From a phage, in the sequence record PZ476263.1: a DNA stretch of 64,000 nt; one strand, 5' to 3'. A program made the translations under genes and the position numbers. Below the pieces are notes generated by a model. It searched no databases and was not told the origin of the DNA. It saw nothing but the letters and a program-made list of their open reading frames with translations. Shown one piece after another: positions 10,065 to 19,047 of the stretch (position 1 is its first letter; every line of letters begins with the position of its first letter).

Positions 10065-10295
10065 TTAAGCTAAACGAACATCTTCTGGCGTTGTGTAGAA
10101 ACCATCAACAACTTCCGAGGTTTGAGTTGTAAAGTCAACGATCACATCTTCTTGACCATATTCATTTTCCAAACCAACCACGATACCTTTGTCACCGATG
10201 TTAACACCTGCCAAAAAATATTCATTGTAAATATTTTCTACGTCAGTAGGATCGAAAATTACTTCATCACCCAGTTTCAATTCGCTAAATTGCAT
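10065..10295 (-). CDS. small acidic protein
   Basis: 76 aa, strongly acidic. Confidence 0.35.
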   Translation of the reverse strand: MQFSELKLGDEVIFDPTDVENIYNEYFLAGVNIGDKGIVVGLENEYGQEDVIVDFTTQTSEVVDGFYTTPEDVRLA

Positions 10296-16589: not shown

Positions 16590-16597
16590 TGATGTGC

Positions 16598-16626
16598 ACT
16601 ATATCTATGTAAAAATCTCATGTCAA
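16598..16626 (-). promoter_or_regulatory. sigma70-type promoter for leftward genes (-35 TTGACA, 17-bp spacer, -10 TATAGT)
   Basis: plus strand shows ACTATA (16598-16603) and TGTCAA (16621-16626), i.e. consensus hexamers on the minus strand. Confidence 0.55.
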
Positions 16627-16775
16627 TACTTTTAATTAATAAATTTTAAGATAAAATATAAAAGATCTCTAAAGATCTGTTGACTTGATCTATAGATCTA
16701 TGTTAAATATGTTAAATGTTTATAAAGATCTTGTTTTTTTTTAATGTTTTTATTATTTATTGTTTTAATAATAAT

Positions 16776-16826
16776 TATGAATGAAATGAATAATTATTAT
16801 ATAATTTATGAATGAAATGAATAAAT
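16776..16826. repeat. direct repeat pair (TTATGAATGAAATGAATAA x2) in AT-rich control region
   Basis: two near-identical ~20-nt copies separated by ~10 nt. Confidence 0.6.
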
Positions 16827-16908
16827 TATAATGTAAAGGGGTTTGGTGAGCGGCGGCGAGCCAGGGAATTCTAATATAGTATTGTATGCCTAAACGGGCA
16901 TAAAGGGT

Positions 16909-16936
16909 TTGACTTGTTAAGAAGCTCGTGTATGAT
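16909..16936 (+). promoter_or_regulatory. sigma70-type promoter for rightward early genes (-35 TTGACT, 16-bp spacer, -10 TATGAT)
   Basis: TTGACT at 16909-16914, TATGAT at 16931-16936, followed by GAAGGAGG RBS and ATG at 16967. Confidence 0.55.
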
Positions 16937-16966
16937 GGGTAACGAAGACCAGAAGGAGGTGAAGTT

Positions 16967-17353
16967 ATGTTTGATGTAAACACCTCTGTTGGGAAGAAAT
17001 CATTTGAAGATGATACATTCACCATGTTGCCTCTCCGGTGGGTTGTTGAACTCTCTGGGGAGGATTTGAAAAGGATGATACTTTTGAGGTGGAGGTTTTC
17101 ATTCTTTGCAGAGTTTGCTTCCCGACAGGGTGAACCTGTGGCTATGTGTTTTTATGAATCTCAGGTTGCGTTGTGTGAGTTGTTCCAGATGTCCAGTACA
17201 AGTCAAGCTAAGGTAAGCGCATTCCTTAAGAAGATGGAAGCTGGGGGTTACATAAGTATACAAAGAGAGAAGGTTATCATTAACGGAAAGTCGAAACCTC
17301 GGCACTATATCGTTATCAATGACCCAATCCTTAAAGAAAAGTATAACTACTGA
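16967..17353 (+). CDS. hypothetical early protein
   Basis: 128 aa ORF with strong RBS directly after promoter. Confidence 0.45.
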   Translation: MFDVNTSVGKKSFEDDTFTMLPLRWVVELSGEDLKRMILLRWRFSFFAEFASRQGEPVAMCFYESQVALCELFQMSSTSQAKVSAFLKKMEAGGYISIQREKVIINGKSKPRHYIVINDPILKEKYNY

Positions 17354-17363
17354 GGAGAAAACT

Positions 17364-17585
17364 ATGATGTTCGAAAACAATATCGATAAACCAAATTTAA
17401 AGCCTCTAGAAAGCTCTCTAGCTAAAAGAACTGAAGAGGTCGGGTGTTTGCTTACCTTTATGGCTTTTAACGCTCAGAACGTTTCTAAGGAAGTTTATAA
17501 AATTGTTGATGAATCACTGCTCCCAAAGGCAAAGGTTAATCACATGATTGAGCTAAACGAGATGCTTGATTCGTTTGTTCGTTAA
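17364..17585 (+). CDS. hypothetical early protein
   Basis: GAGGAG RBS before ATG at 17364 (track ORF starts at 17319). Confidence 0.4.
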   Translation: MMFENNIDKPNLKPLESSLAKRTEEVGCLLTFMAFNAQNVSKEVYKIVDESLLPKAKVNHMIELNEMLDSFVR

Positions 17586-17641
17586 TTGACTATCGTCCAT
17601 TATCCCAGTAAAATGAAGATATACTCTTACTTAACTGATTA

Positions 17642-17893
17642 ATGGATATGAAAAAATTTAAACTTTACTTAGACTACTGTTCTTCGGACTATACGACTGA
17701 AGAATACGCAAGCCTGACCGACAGCTACGATGAGGCATTTGAAGAAGGTAATGATGTAGCTTTCGATACAACAGGTTTTTCACTTGAGTGTTGGAAAAAG
17801 GTTGACTTTGGTAGAGGAAACAGCATATACTTCTTCTACCCCAACGAGAACGACTACTCAACTCGTTACAAAATGACTTTTATGGAGGATTAA
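17642..17893 (+). CDS. small acidic early protein
   Basis: 83 aa, acidic. Confidence 0.4.
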   Translation: MDMKKFKLYLDYCSSDYTTEEYASLTDSYDEAFEEGNDVAFDTTGFSLECWKKVDFGRGNSIYFFYPNENDYSTRYKMTFMED

Positions 17894-18109
17894 ATGAAAT
17901 TCAGTATCATTATTGATTTTGAAGTAGATGAAACCAATGAGCAGCTTTTAGAAGCACTTAACGACGAGATTCAACGTACTGGTCAAACTATCCAGGAAAA
18001 ATTTGCAACGTTCCCTCAGGCATTTTATGAAACTCTTGTTGACGATATGCAAGGTCAAGATGAAGAGTTCCCTGGTTTGGAAATTAAAGTTCGTATGATG
18101 GAGGAATAA
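17894..18109 (+). CDS. small acidic early protein (paralog of next gene)
   Basis: 71 aa; shares D.D.TN.QL...TG.T...F pattern with 18109..18327. Confidence 0.4.
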   Translation: MKFSIIIDFEVDETNEQLLEALNDEIQRTGQTIQEKFATFPQAFYETLVDDMQGQDEEFPGLEIKVRMMEE

Positions 18110-18327
18110 TGACAACTCAATCTTTAAAGTACACTTTGACACTGGACATCGACTACACAAACCCTCAGCTTGCTGAAATGGTTAAAGAGAAGATGGAAAA
18201 AACAGGTATGACTGTTGAACAGATCAAGACGAATGTTGAAAAGGAAATTTTTACAGGTTTTAACGAGCTGATCGAAAGTGACCTTAAAAACATGCCAGGT
18301 TTTTCTTTCAATGTCGAACGAGGATGA
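18109..18327 (+). CDS. small acidic early protein (paralog of previous gene)
   Basis: 72 aa; ATGA overlap with upstream gene. Confidence 0.4.
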   Translation: MTTQSLKYTLTLDIDYTNPQLAEMVKEKMEKTGMTVEQIKTNVEKEIFTGFNELIESDLKNMPGFSFNVERG

Positions 18328-18440
18328 TTAGAGATGGAAGGCCAGATCTTTTACGAATATGAAGGTTGTGACGAATACGACGGCTTCATTACATGGGGGG
18401 CGGGTTAATGGGAGAAGAAAATTGGGACGTTTAGAAAAAA

Positions 18441-18653
18441 TTGAAGATTGGTTTTACGGCGGGATCTCTGGATGCTTTGAAGATGAACACCCAGACTTCT
18501 AATTATTTTCCTCTGGAAGATAATCCTCGTAATCATGAGTGTAAAGATTACGATTGCCTATGTTATTGCTGCGGTCATCGATTTGCAGGGCCAAAGAGAA
18601 GCATAATGTGTAATCTTTGTCTTAACAAGAAGAAACCTGTTGACAATAGCTGA
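18441..18653 (+). CDS. Cys-rich small protein
   Basis: ECKDYDCLCYCCGH...CNLC. Confidence 0.35.
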   Translation: MKIGFTAGSLDALKMNTQTSNYFPLEDNPRNHECKDYDCLCYCCGHRFAGPKRSIMCNLCLNKKKPVDNS

Positions 18654-18964
18654 TTAAATATGTAAGATTATTTTGTTGCCTGAGAGATTAGTCATCTTGA
18701 AGGCTGGGTGGGCAAATATAAGTTGGAACCATTATACCACCGACGCGATTTACGCTTTTGGTTGACTGTGACTAAATGGGATGCCCAGTCCATCCTTCTT
18801 TAAAACGGGGAGCCGTCGAAGATTGTCTGATTAGTGATTTACGGATCACTATAGTTTTACTACCACGACAATCTTTTACGGTGTACCCCTTGTCATGATG
18901 ACGAGGTTTAAGGTTATCCTGTCGTTAAATATCCAAAACCTGTTACCACCCACAAGAGAATTTA

Positions 18965-19047
18965 GCGCGGGTGTATCTCAACGGTCTTCTAAACCGTCGT
19001 TAATCGAGTAATTGGAGTATGAAGGTTCGAGTCCTTCCTCCCGCGCT
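18965..19047 (+). tRNA. tRNA-like element, atypical (canonical anticodon arm with UCU and T-arm, but no canonical D-arm or encoded CCA)
   Basis: acceptor GCGCGGG/CCCGCGC; ACGGU-CUUCUAA-ACCGU anticodon hairpin; GAAGG-TTCGAGT-CCTTC T-arm. Confidence 0.35.

Follow-up and report, generated by a model that had tools for sequence, protein, structure and literature searches.

The 64,000-nucleotide (nt) stretch of phage DNA in sequence record PZ476263.1 (the window) carries two adjacent small open reading frames (ORFs), ORF A and ORF B, at positions 17,894 to 18,327. A first-pass annotation of this DNA had described two adjacent ORFs of about 71 amino acids (aa) at this place, and this was borne out: ORF A encodes 71 aa, ORF B encodes 72 aa, and both lie on the plus strand. 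We find that A and B are genuine paralogous genes for acidic proteins of ~8 kDa and that they are translationally coupled. The two genes and the short repeat at their starts are as follows.

17894..18109, plus strand: ORF A, 71 aa, net charge -13, isoelectric point (pI) 4.05; paralogue of ORF B
18109..18327, plus strand: ORF B, 72 aa, net charge -4, pI 4.67; member of phrog_28002
17882..17893, plus strand: junction 12-mer ATGGAGGATTAA, the end of gene X (the gene preceding ORF A), carrying the ribosome-binding site of ORF A
18098..18109, plus strand: junction 12-mer ATGGAGGAATAA, the end of ORF A, carrying the ribosome-binding site of ORF B

The same annotation had proposed that the two proteins are tandem paralogues, and pairwise alignment confirms it. 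BLASTP aligns the first 35 residues at 31% identity (35 aa, E = 1e-6). The Smith-Waterman alignment is longer, pairing A1-66 with B6-69 through a single 2-residue gap for a score of 73. When the sequences were shuffled 20,000 times, the mean score was 25.9 (sd 4.9) and the maximum was 57, so that none of the shuffles reached 73 (z = 9.6). When profiles of the A orthologues and the B orthologues were compared with hhalign, the match extended over 63 columns with E = 1.2e-9 and a probability of 96.4%, and the A profile also matched a profile of B proteins from Certrevirus (E = 2.8e-6). A tblastn search that starts from either protein recovers both genes in every related Escherichia coli phage.

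The ATG of ORF A abuts the stop codon of gene X, and the ATG of ORF B overlaps the stop codon of ORF A (TAATG). It is this arrangement of starts and stops that identifies A and B as translationally coupled. GGAGG stands before each start codon, 5 nt upstream in the case of ORF A. The 12-mer ATGGAGGATTAA recurs as ATGGAGGAATAA exactly 216 nt, or one gene length, downstream. This repeat would fit the junction of a tandem duplication, and it would equally fit convergence on a Shine-Dalgarno sequence. A search for a DNA-level trace of the A/B duplication found nothing past the 12-nt junction repeat.

The two proteins had been reported to share a D.D.TN.QL motif with a trailing F. The shared core is real, but the trailing F is out of register and a C-terminal element had been overlooked. 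The corrected motif is (D/E)-x-D-x-T-N-x-Q-L-x10-T-G-x-T, plus a C-terminal P-G-(F/L)-x3-V. In an alignment of 16 A and B sequences (alignment A6, built without the cerA proteins described below and numbered according to ORF B), D15, P63, G64 and V69 are invariant and N18 and G33 are near-invariant. The signature of the family can be written as strand, D-x-x-N, helix, G-x-T/S, helix, P-G-(F/L)-x3-V. Among 1.84 billion representative proteins, an exhaustive profile search found 14 members of the family, all of 71-83 aa. Scans of A, B and X against Pfam, PHROGs, NCBIfam and PADLOC returned no family of known function. One database protein that is 96% identical to ORF B (P0004) has been named 'predicted ester cyclase' by JGI, a name without domain or family support.

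Net negative charge had been ascribed to both proteins. Both are indeed acidic, but only ORF A is strikingly so: it carries a net charge of -13 (-0.18 per residue), while the -4 of ORF B (-0.056 per residue) is unremarkable and ordinary for this phage. The acidity of ORF A is retained in its orthologues, and its pI is the lowest among the 89 ORFs of the window, tied with ORF 10065-10295. That ORF, on the minus strand in a leftward early-looking cluster, encodes 76 aa with a net charge of -14 and a pI of 4.05 and is as extreme as ORF A. Across the window, 19% of ORFs have a pI below 4.7.

These charges bear on the idea, raised in the first-pass annotation, that A and B are DNA-mimic anti-restriction proteins whose acidic surface mimics the DNA backbone, titrating out a restriction enzyme or some other defence nuclease that binds DNA. 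We consider this unlikely. The charge density of ORF A and its conservation among orthologues speak for mimicry, as do the early-type promoter ahead of the cassette and the accessory, mosaic character of the cassette, both described below. Against it, charge density typical of a DNA mimic is found in ORF A only, acidity is common among early phage proteins, as the share of window ORFs with a pI below 4.7 illustrates, and no library that we searched contained an anti-restriction family similar to either protein. The match of ORF A to a PHROG labelled 'Hdf-like antirestriction' was rejected as noise: it spans 27 residues at E = 0.036 and occurs in a single one of the 14 members. DNA mimicry by A and B is neither supported nor excluded by these data, and an anti-restriction role is a guess.

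We examined selection on the two genes. Both A and B are kept in the four E. coli phages examined (A7_1, LTH01, UPEC06 and W70) and in three metagenomic contigs (L011-L013) that have the same five-gene arrangement. Relative to these contigs, the ratio of nonsynonymous to synonymous substitution rates (dN/dS) is 0.06-0.085 for ORF A and 0.07 for ORF B. These ratios indicate that both copies are functional genes under constraint and not a gene and its decayed duplicate. Diversifying selection on A and B was ruled out (dN/dS ~0.07).

Measured against the same relative (17894-18327 versus L011 2437-2873), dS is 0.27 in A and 1.64 in B. Nucleotide identity to A7_1 is 48-60% in the A/B stretch and 97-100% at 18420-19020. 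The jump in dS from A to B and the drop in identity suggest that the region is mosaic and that a recombination breakpoint falls in or close to the A/B junction. Among the five genes, ORF88 (17319-17585), which lies between ORF128 and the promoter of the cassette, evolves fastest. It shows 35% protein identity to L011-L013 with a dN/dS of 0.56, whereas its neighbours show 81-94% and 0.06-0.28.

When positions 16600-19000 were searched by megablast, the matches were the E. coli Vequintavirinae phages A7_1, A5-4, A73, W70, UPEC06 and LTH01, at ~87-91% identity but over just 39-51% of the query. The first four belong to the genus Septuagintavirus (PMC11370258), and UPEC06 and LTH01 are unclassified relatives of it. 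The window encodes transfer RNAs (tRNAs) for Met, Tyr, Gly, Gln and Pro, and the same five-tRNA set has been reported for Jab, a recently described Septuagintavirus relative (PMC13538427). The window is from a Jab/Septuagintavirus-like Vequintavirinae phage of E. coli, probably Jab itself or a near relative.

The genes on either side of the pair locate the ends of the insertion.

17642..17893, plus strand: gene X, 83 aa, acidic (net -10), first gene of the cassette; matches phrog_5676 (E = 2.4e-22)
18359..18653, plus strand: two small ORFs, one of 47 aa (ending EHPDF) and one of 70 aa that is zinc-ribbon-like; match to phrog_8931 (E = 4e-18)

Homologues of gene X were found by tblastn in 108 phage records across Vequintavirinae; the one in PVP-SE1, gp92, is annotated as similar to rV5 gp071. 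Its dN/dS is 0.28. Gene X was ruled out as a third paralogue (hhalign E = 0.09-0.2 against A and B). In PVP-SE1 and KB57, the homologues of the two small ORFs, a 39-aa protein ending in E(R/H)PD(L/F) and a CxxC...CxxC protein, come immediately after gene X, with no A or B in between. Because X directly adjoins the small ORFs in these phages, the A-B pair appears as an insertion with clean boundaries. The pair is missing from most Vequintavirinae. By this comparison of genomes, A and B are shown to be accessory, lineage-specific cargo in a variable slot.

The two paralogues differ in how far they have spread. ORF A occurs in the E. coli clade only and is in no PHROG. Identity to its orthologues is 96% in metagenomes and 41-44% in Septuagintavirus, UPEC06 and LTH01. 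ORF B, which corresponds to phrog_28002, occurs in the E. coli clade and Certrevirus only; it is 42-48% identical to most database members and 33-34% identical to those of PcCB7V and CR9. ORF B matches phrog_28002 over residues 8-70 (E = 2.6e-9), and all seven of the B-type sequences tested match it (best E = 4e-48). ORF A has no match to phrog_28002 in PHROGs at E <= 0.1, so membership is assigned to ORF B only, and ORF A is linked to the family by profile-profile comparison alone. Members of phrog_28002 such as phiTE_200, KaOmega gp290 and A7_1 A71_97, all annotated as 'hypothetical proteins', have the same length as ORF B and lie in the same place, with the gene in the A slot before them and the small ORFs after them.

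The place between gene X and B is taken in Certrevirus by another acidic protein, cerA (phrog_14656; phiTE_199, KaOmega gp289). Like ORF A, cerA is acidic, of similar size (75-83 aa) and in the same position, and to the eye it has the strand, D-x-D, helix, helix, G, strand pattern of A. Homology of cerA to ORF A is not detectable by hhalign (E = 0.26), and to B it is marginal (E = 0.0025, 12% probability). We rejected cerA as the ORF A orthologue, which the hhalign result leaves unsupported. The strong scores of cerA in profile searches are circular, because cerA sequences are within the query profile. Either cerA is an old and very diverged third paralogue, or it is an unrelated gene that was replaced by a duplicate of B in the E. 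coli clade.

Promoter-like sequences were mapped around the cassette and across the window.

17586..17614, plus strand: sigma70-type promoter of the X-A-B cassette, TTGACT, 17 nt, TAAAAT; found by consensus scan
16909..16936, plus strand: upstream rightward sigma70-type promoter, TTGACT-16-TATGAT, at the divergent control region that separates the leftward from the rightward cluster
8317, 9689 and 10674 (minus strand), 16909, 17586 and 18640 (plus strand), 60474 and 63946 (minus strand): TTGACW-N16-18-TAWRAT sites

The promoter at 17586-17614 lies ~280 bp upstream of ORF A. Across the window, Septuagintavirus and four Certrevirus phages its core, TTGACTATC...CCAGTAAAATG, does not vary, while its flanks differ; in other genera, TTGACA-17-TAAGAT or TTGACA-17-TAAAAT stands ahead of gene X. 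These sequences indicate that X-A-B is a short cassette behind its own conserved sigma70-type promoter. A sigma70-type promoter would be read by unmodified host RNA polymerase, and the cassette is presumably expressed early for that reason. Across the window, TTGACW-N16-18-TAWRAT occurs at 8 sites where 0.54 are expected, a 15-fold excess, and all are oriented with the local genes. This class is probably the set of early promoters that the phage presents to host RNA polymerase. A literature search on rV5 transcription and early promoters found no transcript data for this subfamily, and the papers describing Septuagintavirus (PMC11370258) and Jab (PMC13538427) say nothing about when these genes are expressed or what they do.

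The strong promoter that had been placed about 1 kb upstream does exist, as the sigma70-like site at 16909-16936, ~960 bp before ORF A. It is conserved in the four E. coli relatives compared (A7_1, W70, LTH01 and UPEC06) and drives ORF128, a winged-helix-like protein (phrog_8453). The accompanying claim that the pair stands at the head of the rightward early operon did not hold, as ORFs A and B are the fourth and fifth genes of the rightward cluster. The divergent control region (16590-16966) adjoins ORF128 (16967-17353), whose phiTE homologue has weak HTH_Crp_2/TrmB matches. Within the region are four copies of AAGATCT spread over 70 nt (16662-16732), a tandem repeat of 31 nt (16763-16824) and GC-rich segments that are conserved; over the whole window AAGATCT is not enriched. 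These features make 16590-16966 a candidate operator or origin region.

We used AlphaFold to predict the structures of both proteins. ORF A was modelled with a predicted local distance difference test score (pLDDT) of 76.5 and helices at 16-29 and 33-53, and ORF B with a pLDDT of 85.5 and helices at 19-32 and 36-59. Each monomer model has two helices and extended N- and C-terminal segments in which DSSP calls no strand; in both proteins the N-terminal segment alternates hydrophobic and polar residues. The predicted layout is shared: an extended N-terminus leads through D-x-x-N into helix 1, a G-x-T turn connects this to a long helix 2, and P-G-(F/L) then precedes an extended C-terminus. Of the 16 sequences of alignment A6, 15 have the G33-x-(T/S)35 turn between the helices, and a G-x-S/T/N turn between helices 1 and 2 is a feature of ribbon-helix-helix (RHH) proteins. 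For both proteins the best structure matches are the RHH antitoxins TacA2, KacA, MazE6 and ParD2, with scores below significance, and a BFVD structure search returned five CopG/RHH entries, all at E > 4. Among the structure matches, RHH is the only recurring class, each match being insignificant alone. We therefore describe the predicted topology as RHH-like and the proteins as at most putative members of the RHH superfamily. Profile matches in the PDB to designed helical repeats, and a sub-threshold match to a SUMO strand-helix, were dismissed as artefacts of helix-turn-helix composition.

An RHH-like fold raises the possibility that A and B are DNA-binding regulators of the early operon or of a host promoter. 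RHH repressors are common in phage early regions, the predicted topology resembles theirs and includes a G-x-T turn, and in an hhalign alignment the strand and helix 1 fall in the register of CopG. That alignment is not significant (E = 0.054), and neither is the one against Arc (E = 0.26). No Pfam RHH family matches any of 29 members even at E <= 10. Facing outwards on the ribbon are K/T/T/D/D in B and K/S/I/D/E/D in A, and the 2-3 Asp/Glu residues among them, together with pI values of 4.05 and 4.67, are ill-suited to contacts in the major groove. The winged-helix ORF128 nearby is a better candidate for a regulator. Taken together, we judge a role as RHH regulators to be very unlikely.

We tentatively favour a different use of such a fold, in which A and B are dimeric acidic proteins that bind a host protein in counter-defence or host takeover; we hold this as a possibility and not as the expected outcome. 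Both terminal segments are extended and unpaired in the monomer models, as in RHH proteins, which makes it probable that A and B dimerise (as A2, B2 or A-B) through an intermolecular beta-ribbon in the RHH manner. The dimer would probably not bind DNA, given the Asp/Glu on the outward ribbon face and the acidity of the proteins. It would instead bind and block a host protein, most plausibly a nucleic-acid-binding component of a defence or toxin system, and two diverged copies could widen the range of targets. In the most specific form of this proposal, an RHH-like acidic homo- or heterodimer would have turned a DNA-reading ribbon into a decoy for a host DNA-binding defence nuclease or toxin, a new structural class of counter-defence protein that would travel as exchangeable cargo in an early cassette of Vequintavirinae, beside genes for NAD reconstitution and the pseudo-ToxI locus. 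We regard that version as highly improbable.

The neighbourhood of the slot is consistent with a counter-defence role. Every other genus has, just upstream of the cassette, a gene pair of the Prs family (PF14572) and the NAPRTase family (Prs plus Nampt). The same two domains make up the NARP1 operon, which reconstitutes nicotinamide adenine dinucleotide (NAD) and so counters NAD-depleting defences (bioRxiv 10.1101/2024.02.11.579819). In phiTE, a pseudo-ToxI locus is found 1.9 kb downstream of the ORF B homologue, and this pseudo-ToxI is the escape locus that defeats ToxIN (PMC3475682). Lineage-specific cargo in a slot flanked by a NARP1-like pair and, in phiTE, by pseudo-ToxI lends indirect support to counter-defence.

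The same surroundings bear on a related explanation, that A and B are antitoxin-like decoys in which an RHH-type core with a C-terminal tail neutralises the toxin of a host abortive-infection or toxin-antitoxin system. T4 Dmd and phiTE pseudo-ToxI also neutralise toxins, by other means. The best structure matches of A and B are RHH antitoxins with toxin-binding C-terminal tails (TacA2, KacA, MazE6 and ParD2), the C-terminal P-G-(F/L)-x3-V is the most conserved part of the family, and phiTE has its RNA antitoxin mimic 1.9 kb away (PMC3475682). Library scans detected no toxin family next to A and B, whose neighbours are gene X and tiny ORFs. We consider antitoxin-like decoys improbable.

Returning to acidic dimers that bind a host protein, several results weigh against this proposal. 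ORF B is only mildly acidic. Both genes are under purifying selection (dN/dS ~0.07) without the signature of an arms race. Two-thirds of the sequences in the input alignments for AlphaFold were cerA, at best a putative homologue of A and B, and the absence of Pfam RHH matches counts here as well. Known anti-defence, anti-restriction and RHH families gave no sequence match in the libraries or the PDB. The early timing is read from promoter sequence alone. A Nampt gene was sought in the window and is absent, hence there is no NARP neighbour here, and guilt by association is weak amid many small unassigned ORFs and tRNAs.

Some of these observations fit a role outside defence, in which A and B modulate replication, transcription, translation or tRNA use, act as chaperones or adaptors for X, or are dispensable cargo. 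In every genus the tRNA cluster follows directly on the cassette, the coupling to the conserved gene X suggests a common task, and strong purifying selection without diversification is as expected of such a role. The pair is also absent from most Vequintavirinae and is therefore not essential. At the same time, nothing specific indicates any of these functions, and a lineage-restricted, mosaic distribution is more typical of genes for host interaction. We see a non-defence accessory role as a possibility, though less likely than not.

Two further features of the window were noted. A tRNA-like element (18967-19045; Rfam tRNA, 35.8 bits) that is not called by ARAGORN lies directly upstream of tRNA-Met. 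A similar sequence is present, unannotated, in Mydovirus phages of Klebsiella, in jumbo E. coli phages (A4, Turkey5) and in one record labelled Listeria phage. Over ~140 nt, the non-coding stretch 18801-18941 shares 81.6% identity with an unannotated region of the T4-like phages RB51 and RB68, the rIII-30.9 intergenic region, and the 47-nt core of the stretch (18895-18941) is 96-98% identical in >100 Tequatrovirus and Mosigvirus genomes. A strong fold is predicted for 18790-18950 (-45.6 kcal/mol, z = -3.6), without a match to an Rfam family. The stretch 18801-18941 may be a conserved noncoding RNA or a mobile element common to two phage subfamilies.

The present result is mainly one of annotation: two 'hypothetical proteins' are now paralogues under selection, with a promoter, boundaries and a distribution, in a subfamily that is used in phage therapy work. 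A and B are tractable candidates for a deletion or expression screen. Should they inhibit a host defence system or a toxin, the list of phage counter-defences would gain a new, very small protein family, and the slot downstream of X, beside the NARP1-like genes and pseudo-ToxI, would be a counter-defence hotspot to mine across Vequintavirinae.

Compared with RHH proteins (Arc/MetJ/CopG and the antitoxins TacA, KacA, MazE6 and ParD), A and B have no sequence or profile match and only structural scores below significance. They also differ in being acidic, in having Asp/Glu on the putative ribbon face and in their longer helix 2 (21-24 residues). Relative to the RHH antitoxins, they have the conserved P-G-(F/L)-x3-V terminal element and no toxin neighbour.

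Small acidic early phage inhibitors and DNA mimics include T7 Ocr, T4 Arn, ArdA and T7 Gp2. To our knowledge, the topology predicted for A and B is not known for any of these four. A and B also differ from this class in lacking an anti-restriction match in Pfam or PHROGs, and only A has a comparable charge density. Like these inhibitors, A and B are small, acidic, apparently early, non-essential and lineage-restricted, and they join, as a small new member, the large class of acidic early accessory proteins of phages.
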